From Rhizophagus irregularis (Eukaryota), in NCBI RefSeq assembly GCF_026210795.1, contig NC_089432.1, forward strand, positions 5,146,001 to 5,210,000: 64,000 bases of DNA, in the 5' to 3' direction. Positions within the stretch are counted from its first letter, which is position 1, and the number at the start of each line of letters is the position of its first letter. The translations under genes were made by a program, and so were the position numbers. Below the pieces are notes generated by a model. The model saw only the letters and a list, made by a program, of their open reading frames with translations. It did no database searches and had not been told where the DNA came from. Positions 5,631-47,608 of the stretch are shown here, piece by piece.

Positions 5631-5953
5631 TGGTAAATTATTTTTCAAAAAGTTTTTGTAAATTATGATTTTATTTATTCTTAAATTTATTTTTTTCTAA
5701 ACTCATTTCTCCTTAAAAGTATAAAAGCATCAAAAAGATTTAATCATAGAATAGTAACTGAATCTTAAAAGTTTGAAAAGCATCAAGAAGATTTAATCAT
5801 AGAATAGTAACTGATTCTTAAAAGTATAAAAGCATCAAAAGGATTTAATAACTCTTTATTTATCTTATGCACACAAATACATTATTACTCCTAAATATGA
5901 ATTATATTAATTATATTCCAACAATTTATATTAATAATTATATTTAACCACTT

Positions 5954-16757: not shown

Positions 16758-19700
16758 TTAAAAATTGAAAAAAAAATTACGTAATAATGTCAAATATGTA
16801 GGAGGCTGAATTTTTTCAAAATCAAAAATATCATCTAACTTCCACTTGGCTCTTTTACTGATAAGTGGATGTTTCTTTTGTAAAATCTCGTCTAAATCCA
16901 TAGTGCGACCAATAAGTGGTGCTATCTCACCATTTTCTTCATCCTCCTGATTTAGAATTTCTGATTCCTCATCTTCTACCATTTCAATCCATTCATTAAT
17001 TAAATTTCTCCATTCACGAGGTGATTCAATATCTTGTTCCGAATCTTCAGAAGATTGATTTAAAAAATCATCATCATTATCGGATACATTAAATTGGTCG
17101 TCATCTTGCTGTTCTTAAACAACTGGAATTGCAATGTTTGTATCTTTGAGTTTTTTATTTGCACTCATAATATTTTCCAGTCGTTTTTGCCGTTGAAATT
17201 CTCCCTTTATTTGACTCATAGCAAGAACTTTTTCTGACTGTAATAACATTATAAGTTATAACAGTTAAGAAAGCCAAATAATTAAATATGCTAAAAAAAC
17301 GTCAATAAATAAAAATTTAAGGTAAATTTCATACACCCAAGCGGTTTCTTTTATTCGTATAAAAAAAGCCCATGGAAGAAAAAAGTCTTTCAACCGAGGC
17401 AGTATTAATACAAATAGCATATATTTTAGTAGAAAATGCACTTAAATCTGGTGCATAAGCAGATGTAAAATCCCAAAACCCAAGTACACCATTACAAAAT
17501 TGTTTTAATGACATATTATTAAATGGAAAATCTTGTTTTCGATAACTCTGCAACTCTCCCAATAGTGAGGTAGGTAATCGTTTAAACCAAGCACAGAAAT
17601 AGTAAATCATCCATTCACTCAATTGAGCAAAAGAAATTGATTGATTACTTTGAATAAAAAGATTATTCCGATATTCAGGGTGGAGAAGAAAAGAAATTAA
17701 TAATAAGGGCTGTTCCCAAATATCCCATCGTTTTTCTAAACGCGCAGCCATTTTTTTACCTAAATCTTGATCGGAATATTCTTGCCACATTTTGTAAAAA
17801 TAAGCAAATCCATGAAGTACATCATGGAGACGAGCATTTTCTGCTTGTAATTTGTTTAACACTCCACAAAAAGGATATAGAAGCTTTTCTAATTGCTTAA
17901 TTTCTCTCCACCAAATATCATTATCAATAGTTTTGCAAATATCAAGCGGCAAAGTTTTATTATTTCGTGTTTCATCTTCTTCACCAGAATAGTAAATTGC
18001 TTCATCTTCTTGATCAAATTCTTCAGGAGCATATTTTGAAATAAGTACCTAAAAAAATATGCATGTGTGTAAAAAAATAAAATTAAAAGCTAATTTTATT
18101 AGGTATTTTAAATTTTACATACCTTTAAAGCTGCCTTTGTTCGTATTAAACTGAAATAGCAATGATAATGAGAATTCCAACGTGTAGCACATGGAAGAAG
18201 AAGAGCAAGATATTTATTATATTTGATTTTTTGCTCATCACGTAATCTAGCCATAAAGTAAACTGATCTGTTAAGGTATGTAATAATTTGAATGGCCTTT
18301 TCAGATGCATTAATCAAATTAGGAGATTCTTTAAAGATTTCTCCAACAATTAGGTTAGCTTGATGGGCAAAACAGGGGCCAAAAAAAACGTCTCGCCGCT
18401 CTGGTGCCAATCGTTTTCTGTAAATTATAAAAAAAAAGTTAATATTTTGCGAATTGTGATTATTAATTTAAATCATTAAGATTTACTATTAACAATTTAA
18501 CATACCTTGCAGCTTGATTTGAAGATGCAGAATCAGTAATTACAGCATTGTATTTGATATTCTGTTTATCTAAATCACTTAAAAAATTTAATGTAAATTC
18601 TTTAATTTCCTCCCATTGAACACGATTTCTGCTTATATCTTCTCCTCCCCATACTAAAACTTGTCCATCAGAAGTAATTAAAACTGATCCCATAATTTCT
18701 TGCTTTTTGACATTTTTCCATCCATCAAAACATACAGTAACTCCAAGTTCATCTTTTTGTGCAGTATCAATTAAAGTTTTTTTAATATGTTCTGAATTTG
18801 TATTCAGAATACGACCTGCTAGTACTTTCCCTATAAAAAGTATTATACTTAAAATATACTTAAAATATATTTAAAATATACTTAATTTAAAAATTGCAAA
18901 ATACTTATAATATATTTTTAATATATCTAAAATATACTTAAAATTATCTTAAAATATATGTCTAATATATTTAATTTTTGCCCATATACTTAAAATATAT
19001 TTAAATTATATTTAAATTAAAATTTAAGTATATTATAAGATTATTATAAGTATATCTTTTACATACTTAAAATATACTTAAAATATATTATGAAATATAT
19101 TATAAGAATATTTTAAGTATGTAAAAAATATATCTATAATATACTTAAATTTTAATTTAAATATAATTTAAGTATATTTTAAGTATTTGGGCAAAAATTA
19201 AATATATTAGAAATATATTTTAAGATAATTTTAAATACATTTTAAGTATATTATAAGTATTTCGCTATTTTTAAATTAAATATATTTTAAGTATATTTTA
19301 AATATATTTTAAAAAGTTTTTAATTATATTTTAAATATAAATACTTTTTATAGGGTTTTTGACTAGGTAATTTCAATCCTGGATTTGCAAAATTAATCAT
19401 TTTTTGACTTGATTGATTTTCGACCCATCTAAATAACCACCCATTATCTATAGTAGAATTCAATACTAAATCTTCCCATTGAGTATATTCTTGCTTAGAA
19501 AGAGGAGTTGGCCGAGGCATATAGTACATAATTTTTGTTTTTCTTTTTTTATTAGCAGATTCTTCTTCAGTACTAATTTCAAATTCTGAAATATAAATTT
19601 AGATTAGTATAAATTAATTAACCAAATAAATTATAAATGATTTTTTAAAAATATACCGTGTGAATGTTGTGATAAAGAGGAAGCGGAAAAAGAGGAACGG

Positions 19701-25255: not shown

Positions 25256-25972
25256 GTCAGAGATATGATAAAATCATTTCAAAATATTAAAATATTAACT
25301 TTATATAGCCTTATGTCAAATATATATTAGTAATATAATAGAAATTCAATTTTATATAACAATCATATATTTTTTTATTTATTTTATTTCAGGTATACTG
25401 CAGTAACAAATACATAACCAAATATGTATTACATATTCAACTAGTTATAAACAACTTCAGATCCTGTGTAACAAAGCAGGCCACATCTCATGCGAGACAA
25501 CTTTTGAAGTGATCCAGTGACATAGTTACAGTACTGATCAATATAAAGGTTAAATATTGAAGTAAAAATTAAAAGGGAAGAAATATAGAATTTTATCATG
25601 GTATATTGTCATATGTCAAAAATTATGATTCACTTGATTTTTTTTTTGTCAGCAATTTGGTGAAATTTTCCTCCAATAAAATTTATGCATGCCCTTTGCA
25701 AAATATTTAAAGAATTTTATATCCATTATAATGTTAGTAATATAGTTATATATTATTAAATAAACTGAACTAAACTGCAATATAACTTCAATTAGTCTCA
25801 TCATACCCAGTATTACATGTACAATCATGAGTAGGGATGGCAACGGTCGGTCATGGTCGGTCATCGGTCGGTTATAACCGGTCAAGAACCTTTGACCGAC
25901 TGACTGACCACTTGACCGACCGGTCTGACCAACCGGTTAACCGACCGTTTGACCGACTGGTTAACTGATCCT

Positions 25973-26488
25973 GTCGTCGGTCTGGATGTGTGTCTCGCTA
26001 CCGCTCACCCCACCTCGGCCTCACGGCCTCGCAGTACCTATATCCCCCTACGGGGGTCAGGAATCCCCATATATACTACTACCATGGCCACAGTGGCCAT
26101 GGCTGGTCACACTACTTTCCAACTCTTTTTTTTTATCCATTTTTTCTTATATATGAAACTACTATGACCACTATGACCACTATGACCAGACTACTAAAAA
26201 GTGGATAAAAACGCGAATAAAGCCAAAATCAGACAGAATATCCGGTCATAGTACTGGCCACAGTTCAAAAAACTTATGATAATACTATGGCCACCTTAGT
26301 TAGCTCCTCAGGCTCCAAAACCCGATTTAAGCTATGACCACCCTTTATCTACTTACCTGAGACACCGAACTATGCCACCGAACTATGACCGCCGAACTAT
26401 GACCACCGAACTATGACCGCCGAACTATGACCACCGAACTATGGCCACTTACCCCGTCAGAAAAAATAAGTAATTGAACAATGGGTAT
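25973..26488 (+). repeat. Left terminal inverted repeat
   Basis: Reverse complement of 39890-40406; begins GTCGTCGGTC; contains ACTATGACC x3 and 14-bp CCGAACTATGACCR tandem repeats. Confidence 0.95.
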
Positions 26489-26527
26489 TGAGAATAGAGC
26501 ATATCCAGATAAGTTTAGAAGACAGTA

Positions 26528-26848
26528 CTAATCCGTCTTCCTCTTTTTTGCCTCCTTAAGGCATTTATCAATACACTGTTTACACGCGTCATCAGAATCT
26601 AAGATTTTCTGTCCAAGTTTTTTGCACTGCCGATTGTAAGCCGTCTGCTGTCTCTTAGCAGCGGTTTCTTTCTTTTTCTCCTTAGTCTTCTTCTTGATCA
26701 CCCAGTCTATTCCAGTAAAAGTATTCTTATGCATACCACAAATTGTGCAGTCACCATGCAGCCGGTAACGCCCATTTGTAGTCATATCTTGTATTTCACT
26801 AGCCGTCTCAGTTTCCTTCTTGCACTTTAGGCAGTAAAAACGTGTCAT
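26528..26848 (-). CDS. Small zinc-ribbon protein (DUF5679-like) with basic tail
   Basis: FYCLKCK...TTNGRYRLHGDCTICG pattern. Confidence 0.7.
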   Translation of the reverse strand: MTRFYCLKCKKETETASEIQDMTTNGRYRLHGDCTICGMHKNTFTGIDWVIKKKTKEKKKETAAKRQQTAYNRQCKKLGQKILDSDDACKQCIDKCLKEAKKRKTD

Positions 26849-26892
26849 TTTAAGATTTGAAGTCTAAAACCATTCCTTTAATTTGTTGTAAT

Positions 26893-27984
26893 ATGTCACA
26901 CTTAGAGAATTACTATAAGTACTACAATCTCTCCGGAGTACCAGCACGAATTCTAAAAGGTGAAGAGCACTACAACCTATACAAAAAGCCCCTAAAGGAA
27001 AAGTCAACAGAACGCCCAAAGGTAATTGTATGGAAACCAAATGCAACACATCAGGCAGATCTTGCAGAGATGCCAGTTGACCCCAAAGGATTCCACTATT
27101 TTCTCGTAGTGGTGGAAGTTGCAGGAAAGAGAGTTGATGCAGAACCCCTAAAGGATAAGACTGCAAATAGAGTTCTAAACGGGTTTGTCAAAATCTACAG
27201 AAGAAATCGTATTAAGCCACCAACACACAGACTGGAGACAGACTCCGGATCAGAATTCACTAACGACCAGGTACGTGATTTTTTCCTGAACAGCCTAGGG
27301 GTAATGATGAGGTTCGGAGAGCCAGGAAGGCATAAACAGCAATCTTATGCTGAAAGAGCTATCCAAGCCATCCAAGAACCCCTTCTTAAACGAATGGTAG
27401 CACAGGAGTTGAAAACCGGGGTGACATCCGTGGAATGGTCAGAAGATTTCCATAATATAGTGAGTAAAGTAAATGAACTCTGGCAGAGAAATCCCCCAGA
27501 CATTCCGACAGGATCACCCAAAGTGTCAAAAAAGACGGATCTCCTCTCTGAAGGAGCACGTGTCAGAGTCAAGTTAGATGAACCTATCTCAGTACTCGGT
27601 AATAAACTTCACGGAAAATTCCGTACAGGAGACATAAGATGGAACCCAAACATTCGTGTAATCAAAAAAATGATACTCTCACCCGAACAGCCTCCTACAT
27701 ATCTCCTTAATGGACCACATGGTCGATTAGGTGTATCCAGATGTGCATATACCCGAAAGGAATTGCAAGTAGTTCCTATTAATGAAAAGCCTCCACCTGA
27801 CTCTGTGATAAGAGGACAACCTGAAAGATTTGTTCCTGAGCAGATACTTCGGCATCGCATTAGAAAAGGTCAAGACCAGTATTTGGTTAAGTGGGAGCGC
27901 TATCCAGACACTGAGGCTACTTGGGAACCTGCTGACCGGTTGAAGGAGGATGTCCCTGACTTAATTCGCAAATTTTGGGAATAA
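26893..27984 (+). CDS. Retroviral-type (rve) DDE integrase with C-terminal chromodomain
   Basis: HQADL, LETDSGSEF and AERAIQ catalytic motifs; EQILRHRIRKGQDQYLVKWERYPDTEATWEP chromodomain; first ATG at 26893. Confidence 0.93.
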   Translation: MSHLENYYKYYNLSGVPARILKGEEHYNLYKKPLKEKSTERPKVIVWKPNATHQADLAEMPVDPKGFHYFLVVVEVAGKRVDAEPLKDKTANRVLNGFVKIYRRNRIKPPTHRLETDSGSEFTNDQVRDFFLNSLGVMMRFGEPGRHKQQSYAERAIQAIQEPLLKRMVAQELKTGVTSVEWSEDFHNIVSKVNELWQRNPPDIPTGSPKVSKKTDLLSEGARVRVKLDEPISVLGNKLHGKFRTGDIRWNPNIRVIKKMILSPEQPPTYLLNGPHGRLGVSRCAYTRKELQVVPINEKPPPDSVIRGQPERFVPEQILRHRIRKGQDQYLVKWERYPDTEATWEPADRLKEDVPDLIRKFWE

Positions 27985-28008
27985 AAAAAATAGAAGAATT
28001 AAAGGGTC

Positions 28009-30174
28009 TTATTTTTTATCCCCTCGATTAGCATCAGGAACTATCGGGATAAAAACATTCTTCCCATCACAGGTAAAGGCTATATGTTCACGTGATTCAT
28101 GGACATCATAATTGTAACGTTTCAGACACGTTCGGCTTAACCCAATTTCCCTATGCTTGTAACCACTTAAGACTGCAAGGTCCTCAGTGATAGCATAATC
28201 AGGGGTAAGTTTGATTGTCACTCCCTTTACCATGCCGAATGTCCTACCTGTTCCTGAAGCACCAGATATGTTATATGTAATACTCTTGTCAATATCCAAC
28301 CCTAATTCCTCAGCAGCTTCTCTCTGAATAAAAGACGCATTAGCACAAGTGTCTGCTAAACACTGAATTGCTATTCCATTAACCTCCCCATCCAGTGCTA
28401 AAAGATCTTTAGTATTCTCTAAACGAGCTATGTCAATATCCATAGGATCATCTACCCTGATATCCTCTTCTTGTTCCTCCTCAACTAGGTCCTCCGAAAT
28501 CTCTGTGACTTTTCTAGCAGACAATAACTCCTCCTGAAGAATCTCACGGAGTAATTTCCTAAAGTCTGCAGACCTTAACAGGCTTAATAAATCATTCTTA
28601 GTAACAGCTTTTGCAGGTGTAAACTTACTACCAGTAACTTTCACAGGAATCTTAACAGGGGTTGCTTTGCCTTTCAATGGCACACTAGAAGAGTTAACTG
28701 CTGTCTTATTTGGGGACGACTTAAGAAGTTTTGAGATACTCGAACCTACTTTTTTTGACCCAACACGAACCATATAGACATCACCATCTTTTTCTCTCAA
28801 TTCTACCTTTTCACCAAAACTCGCAGTATCAATGTCCATAGCATCATCATTAAGATCGAGGTTTCTCATTGCTCGGGCCAAATCCAGATCATCACGTCTA
28901 TCTTTAGCCTTCTGAAGTTGTTTTGTAAGTATTTTAGACGTCCCACGTTTATATCCCATAATAAGATCAATAGCATTTTGATGATCATCCAAAGTCCACT
29001 CAGGAGCATCAGGGTCATCACCAACATCATGATCTACATAACCATCATCCCAATCAGGATCCTGAGGATCCTGAACAACACGTCTCTGTGGTTTTGGTCG
29101 AACAGGTTTAATCTGCTGTCTATAGACTGGTGGATTACGAACTGGCCGAGCCTGTAATTGTTTAAATTGCACCTGAAAATTCTTGGTAAGTTCCTCAGCT
29201 TGAGCCTTAAGTAACTCTTGTAATTGTTCTTGAGTAACCCCAGATGACTTTGATGTCAGTACTACAGGTTCCTGTTTTCCTAACGGAGGTTGAGTTACAT
29301 CACTGTAATCTGCTTGAAGTCGTCGATTTCTATCTTGTAACCCCAAGCGCATTTCAGCCCTTCTCCGTTCTAAATTTCTCAGATGTTTAACCAAGTCATC
29401 AGGATTAAGATTACTAAACCTTTCTGCTTCAAAAATATTATCAGCCGAAAGACCTCTAAAGAACTGGTCGATAATAAGATCATCAGTTAGTTTTAGTAAT
29501 TTTCCAGCTCTCTTTACAGTTCTATAAAATGCATCGACTGGCTCATTTTCCTGATAAAGACTGTTAAAACGGATACGTTTCTTTTCATCTAAAATAGTTG
29601 GAAATTGTGTTCTAAGCCAATAAAGCGCCTGGTTAGGTTTAATACCTGGAAAAACTATAGAACGATTATTATTAGCAGCAACACCAGCATCTGCAGTAGC
29701 TGGAGCAGCTCTATCTGTCGGACGAGCACCAGCTCTTCCCCAAGCTTTATCTCCACCTATTAAATCATGGGTAGGAATAAATGCTGCTCTAATAGTTACT
29801 AATGCATTAGCTGCATCTGTAGCATAAACATGTGCTTCAGACCCATTTACATAGGTACCTGCATTTGGTCCTCCTGCACCTTCTGGTATTACTAATGCTA
29901 CAAAAGCAGCTAAATTAGCTCCACCTCTTGAAGTGATACCAGAAAGTTCCCAATTTTTTCCTGTAATTTCTCGATCAAACCATTCAGCCGCTTCACCAGC
30001 CATGCAGCTTCTAAGTATACCCATAGCTCTTTTCCAAGACTCTGGTGGCCCTCCAGCAGCGTATGGGTTAAGATTGATAGTATCAAGATAACCCATATAA
30101 AGCCTAACAAATGTATCAATATCATCAGTAGCTTTACCCTCAAAAATTGGCAATCCTATCGCAGTGGTAGCCAT
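28009..30174 (-). CDS. Ty3/Gypsy-like Gag capsid protein fused to a retropepsin-like aspartic protease
   Basis: PIFEG...DIDTFV, GEAAEWF, LYQENEPVDAFY...IIDQFFRGL (CA/MHR-like); AMDID and PMDID motifs; C-terminal LADTCANASFI...ISGASG...IGLSRTCL retropepsin pattern. Confidence 0.78.
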   Translation of the reverse strand: MATTAIGLPIFEGKATDDIDTFVRLYMGYLDTINLNPYAAGGPPESWKRAMGILRSCMAGEAAEWFDREITGKNWELSGITSRGGANLAAFVALVIPEGAGGPNAGTYVNGSEAHVYATDAANALVTIRAAFIPTHDLIGGDKAWGRAGARPTDRAAPATADAGVAANNNRSIVFPGIKPNQALYWLRTQFPTILDEKKRIRFNSLYQENEPVDAFYRTVKRAGKLLKLTDDLIIDQFFRGLSADNIFEAERFSNLNPDDLVKHLRNLERRRAEMRLGLQDRNRRLQADYSDVTQPPLGKQEPVVLTSKSSGVTQEQLQELLKAQAEELTKNFQVQFKQLQARPVRNPPVYRQQIKPVRPKPQRRVVQDPQDPDWDDGYVDHDVGDDPDAPEWTLDDHQNAIDLIMGYKRGTSKILTKQLQKAKDRRDDLDLARAMRNLDLNDDAMDIDTASFGEKVELREKDGDVYMVRVGSKKVGSSISKLLKSSPNKTAVNSSSVPLKGKATPVKIPVKVTGSKFTPAKAVTKNDLLSLLRSADFRKLLREILQEELLSARKVTEISEDLVEEEQEEDIRVDDPMDIDIARLENTKDLLALDGEVNGIAIQCLADTCANASFIQREAAEELGLDIDKSITYNISGASGTGRTFGMVKGVTIKLTPDYAITEDLAVLSGYKHREIGLSRTCLKRYNYDVHESREHIAFTCDGKNVFIPIVPDANRGDKK

Positions 30175-30953
30175 ATCGTCTCTAGTGGATTGTTTAAAAG
30201 AGGTGGAGGAGGGTTCAATTGTCTAATTCGAAACCATTGTACCTGAATTCTAAGAGCAGCTATCTGTTGGAAAAGTCTATTCCTAAGTCTTCCTAATGTC
30301 TGAATCCCAAAACGCACCCTATTATTAGCATGTGCTAGCTGTGCATTAACCTGTCCAAGTTGCGCATTAGCCAATACAAGTTGTCCTCCAGTCCGAGTAG
30401 CCCTCAGCCGCCAATGATTTAAAAGGATATTACCACGATTCACAGCATTTTGAGCCTCATTACGATCCCTTACTGCTTGAGTATAATCTGCTTGTAATAC
30501 ATTACGTTCATGTCGTGCCTGATTACGTTCACCTATAGCCCGTCGACGAAGCTCTACCATAGTATCATAATCTCTTTGCAGGTTATGGTTTTCTTCTATG
30601 AAATTATCATTGGCAGCACGTATAATAACTAATTGACGTTCTAAATTAGTAAACGTTTCATCAAATGCATTTATCTTACCTTGTGCAAAAACTAACAAAT
30701 CTTTTGTAATACCAAGTTCTTCATATTTTGCTTTACAGCGATACATTAATATATTAATAATATGTTTGATTTGATTATTTGCCTCCTGTATCTCTGAATC
30801 AACAGTTAAACGACCCCTGGTAGTCAATAAATTTGCATGAGCCTTAAGTATTCTAACTAATTCATCATCATTTTCTTCATTGGTCAAGTGTGCAGGAGGC
30901 GGTCCAGTAGGTTCTGAAGGAGTATAAACTGGAATTGGTGTTGATGTCGACAT
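30156..30953 (-). CDS. Coiled-coil protein, probably the N-terminal part of the Gag polyprotein
   Basis: 265-aa heptad-rich ORF overlapping the Gag ATG by 19 nt in the -1 relationship. Confidence 0.7.
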   Translation of the reverse strand: MSTSTPIPVYTPSEPTGPPPAHLTNEENDDELVRILKAHANLLTTRGRLTVDSEIQEANNQIKHIINILMYRCKAKYEELGITKDLLVFAQGKINAFDETFTNLERQLVIIRAANDNFIEENHNLQRDYDTMVELRRRAIGERNQARHERNVLQADYTQAVRDRNEAQNAVNRGNILLNHWRLRATRTGGQLVLANAQLGQVNAQLAHANNRVRFGIQTLGRLRNRLFQQIAALRIQVQWFRIRQLNPPPPLLNNPLETIWLPLR

Positions 30954-30984
30954 AGTATTTAAACTAAGTTAGAATAAAATTCAA

Positions 30985-32208
30985 ATGGATCTTTATGTAT
31001 ACAATTTGGACGAGTACACGACCGACTCAAGACAAGGCAATGAGTTTGCTCCATCATGGCCCTTTCGATTAGCCGTAGCAGGTAGCTCAGACTCAGGTAA
31101 GACAACTATGATCATTAATTTGTTAATGGGTGACAAGAAAGCAAAGGAGGATGGTAATCGGTATGTACTATGTGATGCAGTACTTTTAGTTGGCAGATAT
31201 CTTGACGAGCCAAAGTGGGCAGTTGTACATGATTTTTTCGAAGAGGAGAAGATCCCATTCACTGCAGTAACCCATAGTGAGATTCCAGAGATTGATTCCT
31301 TCGACCCTACTCAAGCTACTGTGGTAATCTTCGAGGATCTGATGGATGCACCTAAAAAAATCCAGGATCTCATCACTGGTTACTTTACACATGGACGACA
31401 CAAAAATATTTCATGTATTTATGTAGCCCAAAGATTCTTTGCCATTCCTAAGGCTATTCGAGAAAATGTTAACTACATCTCACTGCATGGAGGTCATGGG
31501 AGCCTTACAGATACCAAGAGAATCATCCGCCTATATACAGAAGAATCAGAGTCATTAGCACCAGTAATTGATGATCTTACTCTGCAACGTGAATTTGTAG
31601 TGTTTGATCTTAGACGGTCCAAAAGTGATCCACTGTCCATTCGAGTAAGATGGGATACTAGTCTCAGTTCGATCACAGAGCAATCTCAGTTCAATCCTAG
31701 TTCGATCTCAGTTCAATCTCAGTTTGATCCAAGTTTGAACCCAGTTCGATCTCAGTCTGAACCCAGTTCAATCACAGTTCGATCCAAGTTTAGTCCCTAT
31801 GGTCAGAAAGCTGTATTTGAAGCAAAAAAAGGTGGACACTTGATTGAATTTGCTCGGGTATTTCCATCCCCTAAAGAACGTCAACATTTACTTGTACCTG
31901 GTGTCTTAGCCAAGAATGCAGATACCTGGATTAAATATGTCTTTCGGGAAGCTTATGGACTCTCTGGTAAGACCCTAGGAGCTGACTTTCAGGATTTCTT
32001 AGCAAAAGTACAGGGTAAGACTGCAAAGACTGAAACTCTGAAAACTGAGAATGTGAAGGAGTTATTCTCCCGATATGAAGCCCTGAAGTCTAGTCACCCT
32101 CTGGATAATAAACAAATAATAGAAGGTATTGAAGTCCTTCTACAGATCTTTTCTAAGAGCCACATGGACCGTCGAGCATTACAAGTAGGAATTAATAGTA
32201 TCTTGTGA
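30985..32208 (+). CDS. A32-like (FtsK/HerA) DNA-packaging ATPase with C-terminal extension
   Basis: Walker A GSSDSGKT, Walker B VVIFED, and FTHGRHKNISCIYVAQ arginine-finger/Q motif typical of Polinton and poxvirus A32 ATPases. Confidence 0.9.
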   Translation: MDLYVYNLDEYTTDSRQGNEFAPSWPFRLAVAGSSDSGKTTMIINLLMGDKKAKEDGNRYVLCDAVLLVGRYLDEPKWAVVHDFFEEEKIPFTAVTHSEIPEIDSFDPTQATVVIFEDLMDAPKKIQDLITGYFTHGRHKNISCIYVAQRFFAIPKAIRENVNYISLHGGHGSLTDTKRIIRLYTEESESLAPVIDDLTLQREFVVFDLRRSKSDPLSIRVRWDTSLSSITEQSQFNPSSISVQSQFDPSLNPVRSQSEPSSITVRSKFSPYGQKAVFEAKKGGHLIEFARVFPSPKERQHLLVPGVLAKNADTWIKYVFREAYGLSGKTLGADFQDFLAKVQGKTAKTETLKTENVKELFSRYEALKSSHPLDNKQIIEGIEVLLQIFSKSHMDRRALQVGINSIL

Positions 32209-32752
32209 GAATATCAAGTAATTCGTCTGCAGAAGCTTTAAGAATCATAGCACTTTTTTTACGGCCTTCAAAGTCAATCCTTAACATCTTAGCCTTCAAC
32301 CCTATTGCTCCTAAAGCACGAGAAGCAAAGTTCTTAGTCATTGGATTACTTATATGATTTACATAGTTCTCATAGAATGTAGTGAAAGGCTCGTCAATAC
32401 CATCTGGATATGTATCCCTTAGAAATTGATATAAAGCAATTTCTCCACTGTCATAACCTATGGCTATAAGCTGTTCGAGAAGCCACTTCCTAATATCTTC
32501 ATATGGCTCTCCATCCATAATATTCATATCCAGTTTTTGTGTAAACAATTGTGTAAAGTCCACATTACTTCCCCGACGAATGATCTGAACTAACTTATCC
32601 CTAGCAAGTCCCAAGGCTTGTAAAGGTTCACTCTCGTCGCCAATCTTCTTTATAATCTGTCTATACAACACGCTGGATAATCCTCTATATGCTGTTTTTG
32701 GAGTGATTACTCCACAGTTTTGGCATTGGTTTATTACGATTGATGTTGACAT
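32192..32752 (-). CDS. Hypothetical protein, possible C-terminal winged helix
   Basis: 186-aa ORF; FTTFYENY...TKNFASRAL resembles the D5 C-terminal wHTH pattern; upstream TTTTGAA motif. Confidence 0.6.
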   Translation of the reverse strand: MSTSIVINQCQNCGVITPKTAYRGLSSVLYRQIIKKIGDESEPLQALGLARDKLVQIIRRGSNVDFTQLFTQKLDMNIMDGEPYEDIRKWLLEQLIAIGYDSGEIALYQFLRDTYPDGIDEPFTTFYENYVNHISNPMTKNFASRALGAIGLKAKMLRIDFEGRKKSAMILKASADELLDILTRYY

Positions 32753-32797
32753 GGCTATCTTTCTTTATGTAAAAAAGAATTATTCAAAATTAAGTAA

Positions 32798-33379
32798 CTA
32801 TTCGGAGCAGTCCTTGCACAACTTGTCCGTTAAGTCACTTGGGCTTACAGGCATGAGACATTCCCTACACAACTCAATATTAAGCTCTGCAAGTCTCGGG
32901 GTATGGTCTTCCAAAGTTCGTGGACGACCGGAAGGACCGGAGGAAAGTGTTCCGTTAGTCGTATCTTGCTGTAAGATAAAATCATCATATTCATCTTGGT
33001 CAGCCTGAATAGCAGTCCTGATTTGTTGTATATCATTGAAAGTTAACCGCTGCCCATCAAGATTTTCCTCATTATAGCGTGTTTCATTGATGATTTCCTC
33101 TATAAGCGCCTCTTCTTCATAATGGACAAGGTAGTAATCCTCAACTACCTCATAGTCACTCTCAATCAGTCTATAATATGTTCTAGTACCACGTCGAACA
33201 TAACGTCCTGTATCTGTATTTAAATATACAGGTTGCTCTTCAGGTGGAGGTGCAGTTTGTCTACAGACAAGCCTTCCATCAATATAATCATGGGATTCCA
33301 TAACTATTCGATTAAAGGTATCTCCACCGATAATAATTGGACGTCCAGTTATAGGGTTAGCTATATAAGGGTAAGACAT
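32798..33379 (-). CDS. Protein with two NPxTGR-type (2-cysteine-adaptor-like) repeats and a C-terminal CxxC/CxxC finger
   Basis: IANPITGRPIIIGGDTFNRI, YLNTDTGRYVRRGTRTYYRL and CREC...CKDC. Confidence 0.65.
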   Translation of the reverse strand: MSYPYIANPITGRPIIIGGDTFNRIVMESHDYIDGRLVCRQTAPPPEEQPVYLNTDTGRYVRRGTRTYYRLIESDYEVVEDYYLVHYEEEALIEEIINETRYNEENLDGQRLTFNDIQQIRTAIQADQDEYDDFILQQDTTNGTLSSGPSGRPRTLEDHTPRLAELNIELCRECLMPVSPSDLTDKLCKDCSE

Positions 33380-33437
33380 GTCTTTTTTCTGTACGTGTCT
33401 ACATACCTAATAGTTTTCTTCAATTTACAATAACCAA

Positions 33438-33648
33438 GTGACACGGTCATCAGTCCTTATCAAAAAATACGAGAATACCTGATGACAAGGTTACATGGTC
33501 ATCAATCCTTATTAAAAAATGCAAGGATACCTGATGATAAGGTTACATGGTCATCAATCCTTGTCGAAAAAATGCAAGGATACCTGATGATAAGGTTACA
33601 TGGTCATCAGTCCTTGTCAAGAAATATGAGGATACCCGATAAATAAGC
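33438..33648. repeat. Four tandem ~52-bp imperfect palindromic repeats
   Basis: Unit GGTTACATGGTCATCA(A/G)TCCTT...AAAAAATGCAAGGATACCTGATGATAA. Confidence 0.9.
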
Positions 33649-33665
33649 TACTCCTGTTAGTCCAT

Positions 33666-34070
33666 TCATACCACTCCCAGTCCCCAAGGATCGCCTCCCC
33701 ATCTTTGTTCACTTAATGCATACTCTATGGTTTCCCTCTCTTGGGGGTCCACGACCATCCCATTCCTAAGCATTTTTTCCATAATATAAAGCTGATCCTC
33801 GGTAAGGCAGTTTATCCATCTTTTATAGAGGTCGTTTACATCTTCAAACGTTATCCAGTCAATTTCCCTCTTTATATAATGCTTTCCGAGAGCTCGGATT
33901 TCACAGTACACATCCCTGATCGTAGTGGCATAATTTTTCCACCTCTTATATGCCTCTCGACGAACTTCCTGCCACCACACTCTATCTACCTTACTCGCTG
34001 CAATAAGGTCAGTATCCGGGATTTTTGTGACAATGCGTTCGACTATTTCTACTGGTAACCGGTCTAACAT
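33666..34070 (-). CDS. F-box protein (element-borne)
   Basis: LDRLPVEIVERIVTKIPDTDLIAASKVDRVW is a clear F-box consensus. Confidence 0.8.
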   Translation of the reverse strand: MLDRLPVEIVERIVTKIPDTDLIAASKVDRVWWQEVRREAYKRWKNYATTIRDVYCEIRALGKHYIKREIDWITFEDVNDLYKRWINCLTEDQLYIMEKMLRNGMVVDPQERETIEYALSEQRWGGDPWGLGVV

Positions 34071-34163
34071 GATGTTATGTTACTTATACTATAGCCATCT
34101 TCAATTACTGTATGCCCATTACAAATGGATAAAAAATATAAACTAAATTCGTACAGGAGCCGC

Positions 34164-34634
34164 TTATGCAAGAAGTTCTGCTAAGGTTTTCTCAGCCTCA
34201 TTCATAGTGACAGCTCGCTTTGGGGGACCTGTTAATGAGTCCTTAGTTACATTATAATACAACTCGAAGAGGGCCTCAAGTTTGTCTAAAAGAGCTTGTT
34301 TATTCTTGTATGATTCACGAATCTTTGCTATCTTAGCAGTATATGCTGCATTATCTGGGAAGAGTTTTCTGGCCACGAACTTCACATATGATACAGGAGA
34401 CTTTGCTGTCTGGATTCTCTTGATATACTTCACATGATCCTGGACAAGGTAGCTGGTTTTGCTAAACCCAGATACTAATGCGACTACTATAGTGTCTTTC
34501 AATGCACGGATAATCTTGAGGACAGTTTCATCAGAGACAATGGTGAACTGATTGTGTGATGCATCATAAATAACTTTATCACTAATGCTGTCAGTGCTGT
34601 TAATAATGCTTGCTAATTCGGTATATGTTGACAT
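34164..34634 (-). CDS. Hypothetical protein
   Basis: 156-aa ORF co-oriented with neighbours, with upstream motif and downstream T-run. Confidence 0.65.
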   Translation of the reverse strand: MSTYTELASIINSTDSISDKVIYDASHNQFTIVSDETVLKIIRALKDTIVVALVSGFSKTSYLVQDHVKYIKRIQTAKSPVSYVKFVARKLFPDNAAYTAKIAKIRESYKNKQALLDKLEALFELYYNVTKDSLTGPPKRAVTMNEAEKTLAELLA

Positions 34635-34747
34635 GATTCCTTATACTTTTTTGTACTTTGTAATAAATAGGAATCTTCAAATTGACTTTACATTCAAGCA
34701 AGAAAAAATATATATACCTACTGTAAATCCAACCGCATTCTTGGCAA

Positions 34748-36628
34748 TCATGTCCAGATAACCTTGTTTGCATTTTTCACATGGCAGTATCCTGCGGTTT
34801 CAAACTTGAGAGCTTTCAATGCTTTGGATGCATTTTCTGGACAAGTGATAAGTGTAGGACTACTCGGCTGTTCCTCTAGAATAAATCCATCTGTATGGAT
34901 GCGTCGTACTTTATCCTTATATGGTTCTAATAACTCTGAAGTCGTCTTCCGTCCATGTGCTAATAAGAATGGAGCGATCCTAGGATACTCACCCTTGAAG
35001 GGACTACCTGGGTTTGTGAACTGGAATCGCCACTGGTCAGATCCTACTGGTACGATGGAGTCAAGTGTGTGGCCTTCTGGAAACTTGAATGGATCTGTTT
35101 GATCTGTGGTGAGTGTCTTGTAATTGCGTTTCCTCTGGCAGAGTGCTCCCCATAGTGTATTGAGAACTCTCTTTGCAACACGACCGGCCACGCCACCCTG
35201 GTTCTTTATATTGAAGAGAAAGTGGACATACTCACCAAATATTACAGTCCCAGGAATTCTTGCTTCTCTGTCATATATCAAGGCATTTGGCTTTCCATCC
35301 TGGATTAACTGTATATCGAGTCCAAGTTTCTTTGCTCGTTGTAAGTCAATGAATGTATAGACTCCCCTCTTATTCTGTCGGAAGAGAATGTCATTACCAC
35401 TTACCTTGCCCTTGGGCGCTCCCTGGGAGCTAGCACGAAATAATCCATACAAGGCATAACCTCTATGGTCTACAAAGTCTTTGAGTATTTGAAACTTACC
35501 TTGTCGGATTGGAAAGTTTGCATTTGATTGCTGAATACTTGGATACAAACTTGTCACGTCGTATTGCCTTCCATAGCCCTTCCATTCATTGTCTGCCCAG
35601 ATAAGACCTCCCATCATTGCATCACTTATCCACTCTGCTTCGACTGGGTCAAGAGGATCATTGGCTGGAACCCCTACACTAAACCGTTCAAAAAGCCAGA
35701 GTGCAGTTCTCTTGTACGACCAGTTGTGGTAAGATAAGTCGATTCCTAGACCGAACTTCTTTGTAGCCTGTAGGAAGGAATCCCGCTCTTCATGGATCCT
35801 CTGGTATGTTTTCTCAAGTGTTTCATATATTCCAGTTTTACAATTCTTCTCGATAGGGATGAAGGAGTAACTATCAGAGTTCTTACCTTTCTGAAACTGT
35901 CCAACTGTAAGAGACTTAACTGTCTTACCATTGTATATTGTTACTACATTATTAACCCCATCTTCACGATAAACAAAGGGAGACTTTTGTTTTCTATCTA
36001 ATTTGCTAGGGTGGAGTCTTCCGGGATTCAGTGCAAGAGAGTAGTGGCCTTCAGACAGGATAAGTGTTGCACGTCTGTCAGATTTGCTCTTGGAAATTCG
36101 AGTGGAATCCCCTACAATATTAAGTGCAAGGCTTCCTGCAAGTTGTTCAACCTTATCCATATATGAGACTGGAACTGGAGCATCACGATTGAGACCTAAT
36201 GCCTTTTTGATATACTCGGGCTTTTTGATTGACTTTGGCATTTTAGAGAATGTGCCGTAGATATATTTCAGGCATTCATACAGGCAATCATTTAGCTCCC
36301 CGTTGCAACCCCCTGCAACCGGTGGGGCATCTCTCACATAAATTATGAATCGTTCAAAATAATCAGGGTCTGCATCATCCGGTAGTTGTGCTTCGTCGTA
36401 GTGGTCCAAGAGTGAGAAGAGGCTGGCTGGTTGGTTTCCTGATGTCCATCCACCGGGTTTCCAGTTTTCATAGGGAAGCAGAATCTGAAATTTATGTGTC
36501 GGATACCGGGATTGGAGTTGCTGTCCAAGTCTGGCAATAGCTCCTCTAGAAAATCTTGCGCCTGAATACTGTAGTTCTTTGATATCTGGTCTTGTAGGCA
36601 AAGCACGTGCAATTTTTGAATAGGCCAT
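34748..36628 (-). CDS. Divergent protein-primed family B DNA polymerase
   Basis: MMGG, YDVTSLYPS, KRVLNTLWGAL and RIHTDG polymerase motifs; N-terminal NDCLYECL...GHY. Confidence 0.88.
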   Translation of the reverse strand: MAYSKIARALPTRPDIKELQYSGARFSRGAIARLGQQLQSRYPTHKFQILLPYENWKPGGWTSGNQPASLFSLLDHYDEAQLPDDADPDYFERFIIYVRDAPPVAGGCNGELNDCLYECLKYIYGTFSKMPKSIKKPEYIKKALGLNRDAPVPVSYMDKVEQLAGSLALNIVGDSTRISKSKSDRRATLILSEGHYSLALNPGRLHPSKLDRKQKSPFVYREDGVNNVVTIYNGKTVKSLTVGQFQKGKNSDSYSFIPIEKNCKTGIYETLEKTYQRIHEERDSFLQATKKFGLGIDLSYHNWSYKRTALWLFERFSVGVPANDPLDPVEAEWISDAMMGGLIWADNEWKGYGRQYDVTSLYPSIQQSNANFPIRQGKFQILKDFVDHRGYALYGLFRASSQGAPKGKVSGNDILFRQNKRGVYTFIDLQRAKKLGLDIQLIQDGKPNALIYDREARIPGTVIFGEYVHFLFNIKNQGGVAGRVAKRVLNTLWGALCQRKRNYKTLTTDQTDPFKFPEGHTLDSIVPVGSDQWRFQFTNPGSPFKGEYPRIAPFLLAHGRKTTSELLEPYKDKVRRIHTDGFILEEQPSSPTLITCPENASKALKALKFETAGYCHVKNANKVIWT

Positions 36629-36711
36629 TTGATATAACTATGAATTGTATTCAATTGTAATATAGGTTTTTTATATAAAAAATATAAGATAACTAAGAGG
36701 CGCTTATCTTA

Positions 36712-39200
36712 TTAAAAGGAGTCAATCATATCACAGGCCTCATCAATATCCAGCTCGTCTACAAATCCATTAGCGGCTTCCCATTCACGTTCCATATCAG
36801 TTTTTGGACGTTCCTCTGGGATTTCTCGTGCCTTACCCTTATTCATCTTCATAGTTTCATAACCGGAGGTGGTAGGGATAATCTCGGCATCATGATCCTC
36901 CTTATATGCTCTTATTAGATCTGCGAGTTCTTTACGGCTAGGTGTTTTAGGTAAGTACCCATTATATTCTATCCAGTCCTTGAAGCGGTCTACTACCTCC
37001 CTAAGGTAGTACTGGTACTCGTCCTCAATACGTGTTGTGGGACATTCCTCTACTTCAAACGCGAGTATTTTCCAGTCATAGTTGTCTGACACGTCTTGGT
37101 ACTTAGCCCATAAATCCTTACCTGTATTGTGGAGATCATTGAAGACCTGGTCCTTTGAATTCTTGACCCATGGCTTACGATCCCATCGGTGCCTTTCATG
37201 CCAAGCCCAGTGTGCTCGAGTACCTTCCTTTGGTTCAGGGTCCCAGTCAACTTCTAGTTCTGTGTCGGGTTCTGGGATAGGTTGCTCTTTAGGAGCCGGT
37301 TCTGGGTCAGGCTTAGTGACAGATGCAGAAAATTCTGCGGGAGACTCAGGTTGTTCTTCAGGAGCCGGTTCTGGGTCAGGCTTAGTGACAGATGCAGAAA
37401 ATTCTGCGGGAGACTCGGGTTGTTGTTCAGGAGCTGGGTTCACAGTTGTAAAATCTGAGTCAGATAGCAAGTCATCTAAGACGTCATAGTCATCAACAGC
37501 TTTAAGTGCAGGTTCTTCAGCAGGCGGCTCATCTTCTTGATCAGGTTCCTCATCAGATAGATAACAGTCTGAGAAGCTATCTATAGGTTCATCAGTATCT
37601 GACTCTATAGGAGCTGGAGATTCCTCAGGAATAGGATCCTCATTGATGACAGGTGCGGGTTTTACCTTCAAGCAATCGGGCTTAAGTGGTACTGGTGGTG
37701 GAGTCTTTTTGGTTTCTTCAGTAGGCTTCTTCTCGACAGAAGCGGGTTTTTCCTCAGCAGGTTTCTCAACAACTGGCTCTACTTCCTCTTGATCTACCTG
37801 TGCTTCCTGTATGTCTTGTGTCTCCTGGATTACTCTACTAAAATTCTTCGCAATTTTTGCTTTATCTAGTATGTAATAGTTTATTCTAGCACCTGAACGT
37901 CTTGGGCGAGTTTTAGGAATAAATTGCTTAATCTCCATACCAAACTTATTATCACTAAGTGTTTTGTTTTCGCCCTTCTCACTGCACCAATTCTGGTAAG
38001 TGCTATAGAAATTTGTACAAGGAATTTCAAGTGTATCACAATTGTCGGGCCACATCATTTCAAGGTAATATTGTATGAAACGCTGGGGATTTGGAATACT
38101 TGCTTCGATTAGCTCCTGTTTCATTTGAGTATCAGGAATAGATCGGGGATTGAAGCTAGTTAAGTCTCGGCTAAGTAAATAGGACATGAAGGAACTGGCT
38201 GTATCCGGATTTTCTAATACTTTTACGAGAGAACCGAAGTATTCTCTATTGCCCTTATATTTGGCTGAGACGTTGAGAGCTACAAATCTTTCATCTCCCA
38301 TTTCTATACGGATTGGCATAGCATGATTACTGAGGATCATGTAGCCAGCAAAGTCATCAATAACCTTCACATCTATCCCCTTTTCCTCGATAGAGATGTA
38401 AGGCTCGGTGATTAAACTCTTGAGTCGGTTGTTTGCCCCGTGCCATTCCTTGCCTGACATATCACATTCATTGAGGATGATAAGTTTTTTGGCACGAACA
38501 GCCGCATTGAACCTTCCCATTACATCTTCAAGACGCGTAGTGGAGAGGAAGTTTTCACGGCCGAGAATACGTTCTCCGATAAAATCGGTTAAGATATTCT
38601 TACCACATCTGGGGGACTGCGCATAATAATTGCTGTACCGGGTTTTTTGTCAGGATTTTGAACCAGAAATGCAAGCCAGTTGAGGATGTACGTGGTTAAC
38701 TGCTTGTCCTCTGCACACCATACCTTATGAACATGTCGAATGATTGGATTAACTAGGTTCGGTTTGATGTGCTCAGCGGGTTGAGCCCTGAAACCTAGAA
38801 AGAGATTGAAGAATTCAGGATTATACTTTGGCGCGTTTGGGGGATAAGGCATGAAGTTTACATCTGTATAACAGATCTTTGTGACTGAGGCTTGGATAAG
38901 AAGGTCCTTTAACTTGATGGATGTGGTCATACCATCATCTTCTCCTGCATCTGACCGAATACTTACCTTGTGCTTAGTAGAAATTCCCTTGAGATCTGCA
39001 GCAAACTCGAAGTATATGCTTCCATTATAAGCCTTCTTTTTTCTGATCCACATGCCGGACTTCGTGGTGATGAAAGCCACAGAAGCTGAGATTGCTGAAT
39101 TGATGCTTTCTTTTATGTGTGTACCTATACACTTTTTAAGAAGGTCATCGTAGAAGAAACGGTTGTTGGGGTTAAAGATTGCTGGAACTTGAGCGGCCAT
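36712..39200 (-). CDS. D5-like/SF3 helicase with long acidic Pro-rich tail; one frameshift at ~38611-38615
   Basis: Joining the two ORFs at the G5 run yields Walker A RSPPRCGKN, Walker B ILNE and motif C ILSN, plus FNLFLGF and wHTH FYSTYQNWC; ATG of MAAQ at 39200 preferred. Confidence 0.85.
37290..37425 (-). repeat. 60-bp tandem duplication in the helicase tail (QPESPAEFSASVTKPDPEPAP x2)
   Basis: Direct repeat visible in DNA and protein. Confidence 0.9.
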
Positions 39201-39434
39201 TTTTTGTTCTATCAAATCGAGTACTAATTTATAGTTACCTAATCTTCAATTGCCGAATATTTTTTCCAAAGATCTGCACTCCTACCAGGTTACCCTCCTG
39301 TAGTCCTGTGGTCCTGCGGTTCTGCGGTCCTCCGGTTATATCTGGTTATCTTTTAGGGGTAAAAAAAAACTATAAACCACGAACCTTTACGACTGCTCTA
39401 AATCTTCCCTTCCCCCTTTTCAATCCACGTATAT

Positions 39435-39872
39435 CTAGTGAAATCCACACCGCTCAAGAGCCCACCTTACCATTATTTGCTCTTTTCTAGCGTCCGTTAA
39501 CTCTTTACAAGCCTTTTGATACTCCTTCCAATTAAGCTCATGAAGTTCACGATTTCCAATACCCTCTTCCTCAAATGATTGACCAAGAGCATCCCCCGCT
39601 TTTTCCTTCTTTTCTACTGCCCTGTCGTATGCCTCCTCGGCTTTCTCATATCGCTTCCACAACTCGGCTTTACAACAGTTGTACCAGAGTCTGTTTATCT
39701 TGAGGTGCTTTCCAAATTCTTTGGCCGGAAGGTTTCTGACTATTTCTGCTACTATATCTGGGTCGTTGAGGGGCGATGCCCGCATTTGGATCCATTTACG
39801 GATTCCATAGATGTCTACAAGATCAAGTCCGAGGTCTTCGGCAAGATAAGTGGCTGCGTGTAAGTTCATCAT
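39435..39872 (-). CDS. Second F-box-like protein with coiled coil
   Basis: SPLNDPDIVAEIVRNLPAKEFGKHLKINRLW resembles an F-box and the 33666-34070 protein. Confidence 0.6.
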   Translation of the reverse strand: MMNLHAATYLAEDLGLDLVDIYGIRKWIQMRASPLNDPDIVAEIVRNLPAKEFGKHLKINRLWYNCCKAELWKRYEKAEEAYDRAVEKKEKAGDALGQSFEEEGIGNRELHELNWKEYQKACKELTDARKEQIMVRWALERCGFH

Positions 39873-39889
39873 TGTATATTACTTATGGT

Positions 39890-40406
39890 ATACCCATTGT
39901 TCAATTACTTATTTTTTCTGACGGGGTAAGTGGCCATAGTTCGGTGGTCATAGTTCAGCGGTCATAGTTCGGTGGTCATAGTTCGGCGGTCATAGTTCGG
40001 TGGCATAGTTCGGTGTCTCAGGTAAGTAGATAAAGGGTGGTCATAGCTTAAATCGGGTTTTGGAGCCTGAGGAGCTAACTAAGGTGGCCATAGTATTATC
40101 ATAAGTTTTTTGAACTGTGGCCAGTACTATGACCGGATATTCTGTCTGATTTTGGCTTTATTCGCGTTTTTATCCACTTTTTAGTAGTCTGGTCATAGTG
40201 GTCATAGTGGTCATAGTAGTTTTATATATAAGAAAAAATGGATAAAAAAAAAGAGTTGGAAAGTAGTGTGACCAGCCATGGCCACTGTGGCCATGGTAGT
40301 AGTATATATGGGGATTCCTGACCCCCGTAGGGGGGATATAGGTACTGCGAGGCCGTGAGGCCGAGGTGGGGTGAGCGGTAGCGAGACACACATCCAGACC
40401 GACGAC
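39890..40406 (-). repeat. Right terminal inverted repeat
   Basis: By eye differs from the left TIR at about 3 positions (one homopolymer indel, two transitions). Confidence 0.95.
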
Positions 40407-47225: not shown

Positions 47226-47608
47226 ATATAAAATTTAATTATTACTAGTATGAAGTTTTTTTAAATATAATTGATATAATTTATATTCTAAAGTATAACA
47301 GATAATGTATTTGTATGCATAAAATTAAAAATTGGATTATCAAAACTTTTATCATAATAAAAAGAAAATTAAAATCAAACTTATGATAGTTTTATACTTT
47401 TAAGATTCAGTTAATATTATCTTATATATAAACAAATAAGTTTAAAACAAAAAGTTTCAGAATTAATAAAATCAACAATTTTTTAAAATATAATATACAA
47501 GAATACAGTCTTACTAGCATGGCAGACATGCTTATATCACCTTGCTGATCATTTGCCAATTACATAATTCCAATTTTAAAATTTATTGCAAAAGCCACAA
47601 ATATTTTC

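Follow-up and report, generated by a model that had tools for sequence, protein, structure and literature searches.

A Polinton of Rhizophagus irregularis with a Gag and retropepsin beside its packaging ATPase and no jelly-roll capsid gene

For the Polintons of Glomus intraradices (= R. irregularis), the available portions of Krupovic 2014 (PMC4028283) list three Glomus entries without major capsid protein (MCP), penton or protease, one of them with an ATPase: P_Gi1.2 is MCP-negative, ATPase-positive and protease-negative, P_Gi1.1 is without the ATPase, and capsid-less Polintons are said there to tend to lose the ATPase as well. In the available text of Bellas and Sommaruga 2021 (PMC7805220), still no MCP was found in G. 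intraradices, and a 2026 preprint (10.64898/2026.06.19.733378) places the A32 ATPases of Glomus and Rhizophagus with those of Polintons, Gag being unmentioned in the portions available. Mavericks are described, in sources likewise available in part, as expanded in Glomerales (PMC11952901) and recently expanded in R. irregularis (PMC8647823). The legend to Fig. 5 of Starrett 2021 (PMC8502044) marks Gag and retropepsin similarity in an unnamed 'MELD-related element', undiscussed in the available text, and the available text of PMC5751038, PMC3671162, PMC10748475 and PMC11296320 held nothing on Gag. Beyond that legend, no description of a Gag-capsid Polinton was found in print by a search that had Pritham 2007, Kapitonov and Jurka 2006 and Repbase outside its scope. 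Here, a 64,000-nucleotide stretch of R. irregularis (contig NC_089432.1 of assembly GCF_026210795.1, positions 5,146,001 to 5,210,000, forward strand; hereafter the window) was analyzed, and a 14.4-kb Polinton/Maverick at window positions 25973-40406 was found to carry a Gag and retropepsin (Gag-PR) gene.

The decisive point is this context, which is missing from a preliminary description of the Gag-PR open reading frame (ORF): the Polinton is complete, and has a packaging ATPase but lacks a jelly-roll MCP gene. The reading favored here, with moderate confidence, is that the jelly-roll capsid and the cysteine protease gave way to Gag and retropepsin, and that the retained ATPase fills a Gag shell with the double-stranded DNA (dsDNA) of the element. 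Direct support was obtained for the anatomy, the predicted fold, the gene order, purifying selection, and a run of nine A and one G (A9G) followed by a stop, with the protease in the -1 frame.

Anatomy of the element and fold of its capsid candidate

The element was assigned to the Polintons because it has terminal inverted repeats (TIRs), a target-site duplication (TSD) and, between them, a Polinton gene set of protein-primed family B DNA polymerase (pPolB), D5 helicase, A32 ATPase and integrase. The TIRs are 516 and 517 bp long with 514 identical positions, including repeat blocks of 445 nt and 77 nt at 100% identity, and the TSD ATCCT was read directly on both flanks. An empty site with the joint 25967->40407 and 6 shared letters was present in contigs of two of the four public runs (X15 and X16). 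The retroviral-type integrase, which also has a chromodomain, scored above the Pfam cut-off, and both Walker A and Walker B motifs of the ATPase are intact.

ORFs fill 92% of the space between the TIRs. Searches of the 13 element ORFs gave no match at E<=0.1 to any Pfam family of jelly-roll or cysteine-protease type, and, for a penton or an adenain-type cysteine protease, no Pfam or PHROG match, the ORFs of 145-193 aa not having been folded. A double jelly roll needs more than ~300 aa. Since no gap exceeds 286 nt and the unassigned ORFs span 134-265 aa (the largest being a coiled-coil ORF), a double-jelly-roll MCP gene does not fit in the element. No reverse transcriptase (RT) or RNase H was found among the 13 ORFs, and no direct repeats of the long terminal repeat (LTR) type were found around Gag-PR among the 20 largest of at least 60 direct-repeat families. 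Gag-PR is bordered directly by genes, not by LTRs; its protease stop faces the integrase across a 24-nt gap (27985-28008), the two genes lying tail to tail and, as the preliminary description had it, not being pieces of a single pol gene.

The Gag-PR ORF was present at 28009-30174 on the minus strand with a length of 721 aa, and its identity as Gag plus retropepsin was borne out by Pfam, homologues and fold together. Pfam search gave Asp_protease_2 (PF13650) at E 4.3e-08 and a weak match to Retrotrans_gag (E 0.086), a family (PF03732) matched by 17 of 31 homologues, in agreement with Atlas; the exact 721-aa protein is absent from a collection of 15 billion proteins. For residues 1-300, an AlphaFold2 model built from an alignment of 31 sequences reached pLDDT 81. 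In a structure search over 48,161 chains, ranks 1-37 were all retroviral, retrotransposon, Arc, PNMA or PEG10 capsids (best match Z 9.7, rmsd 3.2, 81 aligned; RSV capsid protein (CA), Z 9.3, rmsd 5.7, 176 aligned; C-terminal domain (CTD) of PEG10 CA, Z 9.3, rmsd 2.6, 82 aligned). The N-terminal domain (NTD) of Ty3 CA (6r22) aligned with all 74 of its 74 residues over model positions 15-203, stepping over an insert (rmsd 2.6, Z 4.5). The PEG10 CA-CTD was also the top rank in Foldseek (E 6.6e-03) and the best sequence match (E 0.02), and a BFVD search returned Gag and caulimovirus coat proteins, including the rice tungro coat protein, none at E<=0.001. Gag is predicted from this model to fold as a retroviral capsid protein. 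Oligomer modelling (three copies of CA residues 5-282, run without an alignment) gave a score of 0.00, which counts neither way.

The Gly/Ala-rich insert that had been placed inside the capsid domain was located at residues 73-178 (106 aa, 35% Gly+Ala), where it separates the Gag helices (residues 1-72) from the LYQENEPVDAFY segment and sits within the CA-NTD. Modelled alone it folds into helices and a three-stranded sheet; no match at Z>=2 in the 48,161 chains and none at E<=0.001 in BFVD was found for it, which does not prove a new fold. The reported lack of a zinc knuckle was upheld, with no CCHC in the ORF or in any of 161 close homologues. Two PMDID-type motifs had been described; two motifs are there, one of them being AMDID (residue 445) and the other PMDID (residue 577).

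The best PDB sequence matches of the protease were Ddi1-type retropepsins (E 0.0018), and the catalytic Asp was invariant in 13 of 13 aligned sequences. The DTC active site, at residues 608-610, recurs in 111 of 120 close homologues, but DSG was read in two related metagenomic loci (L002 and L004) and DSC in an Entrophospora candida protein (P0172); DTC is, judged from these alignments, lineage-specific, relatives having DSG.

Gag/protease junction, selection and wider family

Ten metagenomic loci (with L numbers) were recovered from 90 candidate stretches, and DNA context is known for these only. The Gag end reads xxA AAA AAA AAG followed by a stop in all seven related loci that cover it, and the protease is in the -1 frame in all six of those that include it. 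The single Gag-protease frame of the preliminary description is thus not the family state. At the window junction there are seven A (TCA AAA AAA GTA), two fewer than in the relatives, and the frames are fused. Two extra T at 28749 were present in the contigs of four of four public runs (at full depth in X16, X17 and X1, and in 44,862 of 66,412 in X15), and six of the seven raw RNA reads spanning 28749 have both of them too. The Gag-PR fusion is therefore not native, and is peculiar to this copy. Since the window is short of bases in several other homopolymers as compared with public contigs (27982, 33658, 38610, 39360, 40219 and 40321), an assembly error is likely at the A7 site, and the in-frame 721-aa fusion is likely a long-read assembly error, or else a true or recent mutation of this copy. 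At 38610, other copies have one extra base, and the loss in the window splits the helicase; given the homopolymer losses, other frameshifts in this assembly may be artefacts.

The arrangement at the Gag/protease border corresponds, as read from the related loci, to a putative recoding junction of LTR-retrotransposon type. Full-length Gag ends share a KKK-type terminus (28 ends, picked by hand and not an unbiased count). Public gene models bypass the junction by an apparent intron, and draw an intron between the coiled-coil ORF and Gag as well. As a separate candidate, a -1 slip from the coiled-coil ORF into Gag at T TTA AAC was considered and rejected, being in frame in three of eight cases (window, L001 and L006) and missing from L002, L003, L004, L005 and L009.

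Gene order is kept over the overlapping L002 and L003 contigs: D5, pPolB, o186, ATPase (reverse), coiled coil, Gag, protease, integrase (reverse), DUF5679, of which L002 covers the ATPase to DUF5679 and L003 covers D5 to Gag. The two contigs have a common inverted repeat of their own, and the identities of L002/L003 to the window element were 47% for Gag, 50% for the ATPase, 60% for the integrase and 46% for pPolB. Of the 195 Gag homologues found, the best 120 were listed, and 118 of these are labelled R. irregularis, which, with the flanking genes, points to a Rhizophagus-type fungus as host. In at least five R. irregularis copies, covering both subfamilies, Gag accessions lie 2-3 numbers from those of the integrase or o186 on contigs of equal length (GET55857/GET55855, GET50464/GET50461, GET60830/GET60832, GET58106/GET58108 and GET54502/GET54499), adjacency being inferred from the numbering. 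Two head-to-head pairs are kept in L002, namely coiled coil/ATPase, 31 nt apart (30954-30984), and DUF5679/integrase, 44 nt apart (26849-26892). An ATPase C-terminal extension of ~180 aa past the A32 domain (31660-32208) is conserved in L002/L003, and is a candidate capsid adaptor.

The dN/dS of the CA core was 0.10-0.28 where dS was measurable, and 0 for one pair. For the protease core it was 0.13-0.23 (0.13-0.14 against L007/L010, which are DTC copies, and 0.22-0.23 against L002/L004), and for the insert 0.22-0.24 against L002/L004; the ATPase had dN 0.29 against L002 with dS saturated. The homologues are thus not evolving neutrally overall, and Gag-PR is almost certainly a functional, selected gene of the Polinton.

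A profile search gave 411 family representatives at E<=0.001. A CA tree of the 77 candidates passing a full-CA filter was unrooted and split knuckle-less from knuckle-bearing members with weak support (85/22), and because the split is weak and unrooted, no donor or direction is claimed. In the knuckle-less group, which includes this gene, CA begins at its own Met, CCHC is lacking, and Gag has a lysine end; among 141 more distant representatives CCHC was present in ten. The sister group combines, in a single ORF of ~1,050 aa, an N-terminal coiled coil in frame, CA with the insert described above, CCHC and a DTG protease; it occurs in Rhizophagus, Entrophospora and Diversispora, and coexists with the knuckle-less group in R. 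irregularis. None of 31 long proteins with the sister-group protease had a precomputed RT, RNase H or integrase domain. Because the sister group has a coiled coil fused in frame to CA, the coiled-coil ORF probably represents the N-terminal region of an ancestral Gag that became separate. Conservation of the insert was seen in the homologues, and it is not peculiar to this gene; because the knuckle-bearing group has it too, the insert appears, on sequence comparison, to predate the knuckle loss or to come from the common ancestor. In sister proteins P0305, P0309, P0311 and P0316, a helical spacer precedes DTG and the ORF ends ~135 aa after the catalytic Asp, with a DLKK motif near the ORF end that could be a further recoding site. 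One Gag of this family (P0399) is filed under a Nitrososphaeraceae archaeal metagenome-assembled genome, probably through fungal contamination.

Proposed mechanism and rival readings

Under the favored reading, Gag would build a retroviral-type shell, into which the ATPase would pump the linear 14.4-kb dsDNA using ATP. Most ribosomes would end at KKK and a minority product would add the protease, as in gag-pro, either by a ribosomal -1 slip aided by the adjacent stop or by polymerase slippage on A9. The protease would mature the shell, perhaps cleaving at MD(I/T) motifs and trimming the tail, and so take the role of the Polinton cysteine protease. The zinc knuckle may have been lost because the genome would be pumped DNA and not selected RNA, the 106-aa insert would form a surface domain, and the AATTGAA motif in front of Gag would drive its transcription, perhaps through a giant virus acting as helper. 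By calculation, 14.4 kb of dsDNA requires an inner diameter of 38-46 nm. Ty3-type capsids are ~48 nm in outer diameter, and the closeness of the two sizes supports this scheme.

Several observations weigh against replacement of the capsid. The particle, encapsidation, protease activity and Gag-ATPase contact are predictions from sequence or model, and to our knowledge no A32-type motor works with a retroviral capsid. Structure-search Z values under ~13 can reflect a common helical arrangement, and nothing in Foldseek reached E<=0.001. No strong stimulatory hairpin was found after A9 (-4.6 to -8.6 kcal/mol), and the protease strays from the canon at two glycines (DTC, and GLSRT for the usual LLG). 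The insert was near neutral in two of four comparisons (0.87 against L001 and 0.98 against L005), and Gag dN/dS was 0.82 in the close pair L002/L004. No relatives were found in viral contigs (Gag, ATPase, pPolB, Gag-alignment and sister-Gag queries) or in prokaryotic genomes. In four RNA runs, from samples of unstated make-up, 82-179 element reads were counted in each set of ~11 million, mostly as partial matches and almost none on CA.

The AATTGAA motif occurs seven times in the element (30214, 33419, 34100, 36650, 39245 and 39900 on the minus strand, 26472 on the plus strand). Of these, the six on the minus strand each stand 28-51 nt ahead of an ORF start (Gag, o193, F-box, pPolB, D5 and o145); the seventh is a mirror copy in the left TIR. 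The motif was picked after the gene layout of the element had been viewed; WWTTGAA stands before 9 of 11 element genes, where shuffles gave 0.83 and host ORFs 1 of 10, but in the L002/L003 element it does so for no more than 2 of 10 genes (p 0.23). ATNTGA, a linear-plasmid motif, was not enriched in the element (3 of 11 genes, p 0.12). AATTGAA resembles AAAATTGA, which, according to the available portions of PMC11788076 and 10.1101/2022.07.28.501842, mimiviruses and pacmanvirus use as their early promoter and their parasites use as well. R. irregularis contains an Asfarviridae-related insertion with RNA polymerase genes, for which the available text of PMC10640383 gives no MCP in five strains. 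The possible giant-virus promoter link is treated as a lead only.

Everything that argues for a real capsid (junction, selection and fold) would also fit a Gag particle that stays inside the cell and takes up DNA by co-assembly, or shuttles an integration complex between coenocytic nuclei, with the ATPase working elsewhere or vestigial. The motor-capsid link is only predicted and P_Gi1.1 is listed without an ATPase, both of which suit such a particle; the ATPase motifs are nevertheless intact, the protein is 50% conserved beside coiled coil and Gag in a distant lineage, and it is placed head to head with the coiled-coil ORF at 31 nt. The Gag tail is moreover poorly suited to direct condensation of DNA because it is not net basic, and we regard this account as rather unlikely. 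The placement of AATTGAA and WWTTGAA before element genes, the service of AAAATTGA to giant viruses and their parasites, the Asfarviridae-related insertion and the near silence of the element in the four RNA runs would agree with a transpoviron-like hitchhiker of an asfarvirus-like giant virus, whose Gag is an inner core or decoy and not an independent shell. That proposal is judged improbable: the motif was chosen post hoc and is not enriched in the L002/L003 element, and transcription by a helper would fit capsid replacement equally while leaving the protease, the frameshift and the ATPase unexplained.

Gag as cargo, for example to restrict, in a dominant-negative way, LTR retrotransposons or the sister elements that bear the knuckle, in a Polinton that is truly capsid-less, is held to be similarly improbable, since restriction needs neither a protease at a -1 ratio nor a retained packaging ATPase. 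Capsid-derived restriction factors do exist, the Ty1 CA-CTD restriction factor is among the fold matches, the sister group coexists in R. irregularis, and the fast-evolving insert could mark a conflict. A decayed retrotransposon inserted in the Polinton, with Gag-PR as a neutral remnant, has a precedent in the nesting of retrotransposons in virophage-like elements (PMC8547959, available in part), but the element holds no RT, RNase H or LTR, and in lineages whose silent sites are saturated Gag-PR still has its position, unbroken frames and a low dN/dS, by which the neutral-remnant reading is largely refuted. A true capsid might instead be hidden in the small ORFs, which were judged by Pfam and PHROG and not by fold, but none is long enough for a double jelly roll; decay or a hidden capsid, taken as one alternative, is considered highly improbable. 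Returning to capsid replacement, a wider statement, that arbuscular mycorrhizal fungi harbor integrating dsDNA viruses combining Polinton replication, a Gag virion, a frameshifted retropepsin and A32 filling, with a possible asfarvirus-like helper and a new fold on the capsid surface, is taken to be an evenly balanced proposition.

Feature coordinates and comparison with known systems

Features of the Polinton in window coordinates, with the Gag-PR region divided into its parts
Feature	Positions	Strand	Evidence or remark
Left TSD ATCCT	25968-25972		5 bp on a symmetric reading of the element ends; ATCCTG (6 letters) fits on either side
Left TIR, 516 bp, starts GTCGTCGG	25973-26488		Inverted-repeat scan
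DUF5679 small cysteine-rich protein, 106 aa	26528-26848	-	PF18930 E 3.6e-17; syntenic homologue in L002
Integrase with C-terminal chromodomain, 363 aa	26893-27984	+	PF00665 E 5.2e-09, PF00385 E 3.7e-17; dN/dS 0.10 against L010
Spacer and retropepsin, natively -1 frame after Gag	28009-28749	-	PF13650; DTC 28345-28353; PMDID residue 577
Putative Gag/protease recoding site	28749-28756	-	A9G and stop in relatives, A7 in window copy
Gag C-terminal tail, ~180 aa, AMDID, natively ends KKK	28750-29295	-	29 K+R, 33 D+E; no zinc knuckle
Last CA-NTD helix and CA-CTD (MHR-like segment)	29296-29640	-	AlphaFold2 pLDDT 81; PEG10 CA-CTD match
Alpha/beta domain inserted in CA-NTD, 106 aa	29641-29958	-	Folds alone, pLDDT 82.5
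CA-NTD helices 1-3, own start Met	29959-30174	-	Ty3 CA-NTD 6r22 match
Coiled-coil ORF, 265 aa	30156-30953	-	Overlaps Gag start by 19 nt
AATTGAA promoter-like motif	30214-30220	-	46 nt upstream of Gag ATG, within coiled-coil ORF
A32-type packaging ATPase, 407 aa	30985-32208	+	PF04665 E 3.2e-09; Walker A GSSDSGKT, Walker B VVIFED, GRH
Conserved ORF o186, 186 aa	32192-32752	-	22% homologue in L002/L003; no Pfam/PHROG match
ORF o193, 193 aa	32798-33379	-	2-cysteine-adaptor PF08793 E 0.0016, below cut-off
F-box-like ORF, 134 aa	33666-34070	-	PF00646 E 0.011, below cut-off
Multicopy ORF, 156 aa	34164-34634	-	Cluster of 46 members
pPolB, 626 aa	34748-36628	-	PF03175 E 1.7e-07, 31 bits (cut-off 25.8); 46% to L003
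D5-like SF3 helicase, split ~38610 in window copy	36712-39200	-	PF19263, PF03288; single ORF in L003
ORF o145, 145 aa	39435-39872	-	ORF list
Right TIR, ends CCGACGAC	39890-40406		Inverted-repeat scan
Right TSD ATCCT	40407-40411		Sequence reading

GC content climbs from ~24% to ~40% between 26 and 40 kb of the window. Within the Polinton, a 52-bp unit is repeated in ~5 tandem copies at 33410-33651, between two small ORFs. The Polinton is hosted by a MITE-like AT-rich inverted-repeat element (25829-25972 and 40407-40652), more copies of which lie at ~41560-42049 and 47630-48917, and is flanked by Sel1-repeat, F-box-like and ML-domain genes (Pfam). Elsewhere in the window are a large AT-rich imperfect palindrome of 11-bp units (18849-19349), a GC-richer tandem array of ~52-bp units (53813-54207), and a duplicated host gene family (43101-47509 and 54353-58000; inverted at 5059-7324) with spacings of ~3.3 kb and 10 kb.

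The gene provides a concrete capsid candidate for the Glomus/Rhizophagus Polintons, for which a capsid was listed as missing in 2014 and still in 2021, and a Gag capsid would explain the long capsid-less listing of Polintons in this fungus. If the replacement is true, a whole morphogenetic module, capsid together with maturation protease, was swapped across unrelated groups of viruses, with the packaging motor left in place; the result would be a chimera between the double-jelly-roll viruses and the reverse-transcribing ones and, should particles be shown, a chimeric virus of a categorically new kind. We know of no precedent for a retroviral-type capsid holding motor-packaged dsDNA. Mavericks have expanded in Glomerales and were active there recently, so that particles of this kind could carry DNA between the nuclei or strains of an important symbiont of plants. 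A self-assembling Gag shell with room for ~14 kb of DNA, its surface tolerant of insertions, would, if real, be of interest as a delivery scaffold.

Among described systems, Bidnaviridae join a Polinton-type pPolB to the capsid of another virus group (parvovirus-like) around single-stranded DNA, and Caulimoviridae hold dsDNA in a Gag-related capsid, but in these RNA is packaged and then reverse-transcribed; neither family pairs a Gag capsid with a DNA-pumping ATPase. Two-domain helical CA, a retropepsin and a -1 Gag/protease junction are held in common with Ty3/gypsy elements (Metaviridae), retroviral gag-pro and PEG10. Compared with Ty3/gypsy, the window element has no RT, RNase H, LTR or knuckle, carries the CA-NTD insert, has its integrase on the opposite strand and uses pPolB replication; compared with domesticated PEG10 and Arc, its Gag is multicopy, lies inside TIRs and has an existing empty site, and is not a single-copy host gene.

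The 'MELD-related element' of Starrett 2021 may belong to this family or to the sister group; its label includes NC, which the window lineage lacks, and the available text gives no analysis of frameshift, insert, selection or capsid replacement. That figure may therefore already depict the gene content; in the literature searched, nothing in print was found on the reading as capsid replacement, on the frameshift, on the insert domain or on the breadth of the family. The entries Polinton-1_GI, P_Gi1.1 and P_Gi1.2 are like the window element in having no jelly-roll capsid, penton or cysteine protease, P_Gi1.2 also keeping the ATPase; they are listed at 11.0-12.0 kb, not 14.4 kb, were read as having lost the capsid, and have no Gag in the main texts, as far as these were available. 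These entries are probably of the same family, being likened here by description and host label, not by sequence. With canonical Polintons and Polintoviricetes (adintoviruses), the window element shares TIRs, TSD, pPolB, chromodomain integrase and A32 ATPase; unlike them, it lacks the MCP gene, with no penton or cysteine protease detected, and carries a Gag and an aspartic protease beside the ATPase.

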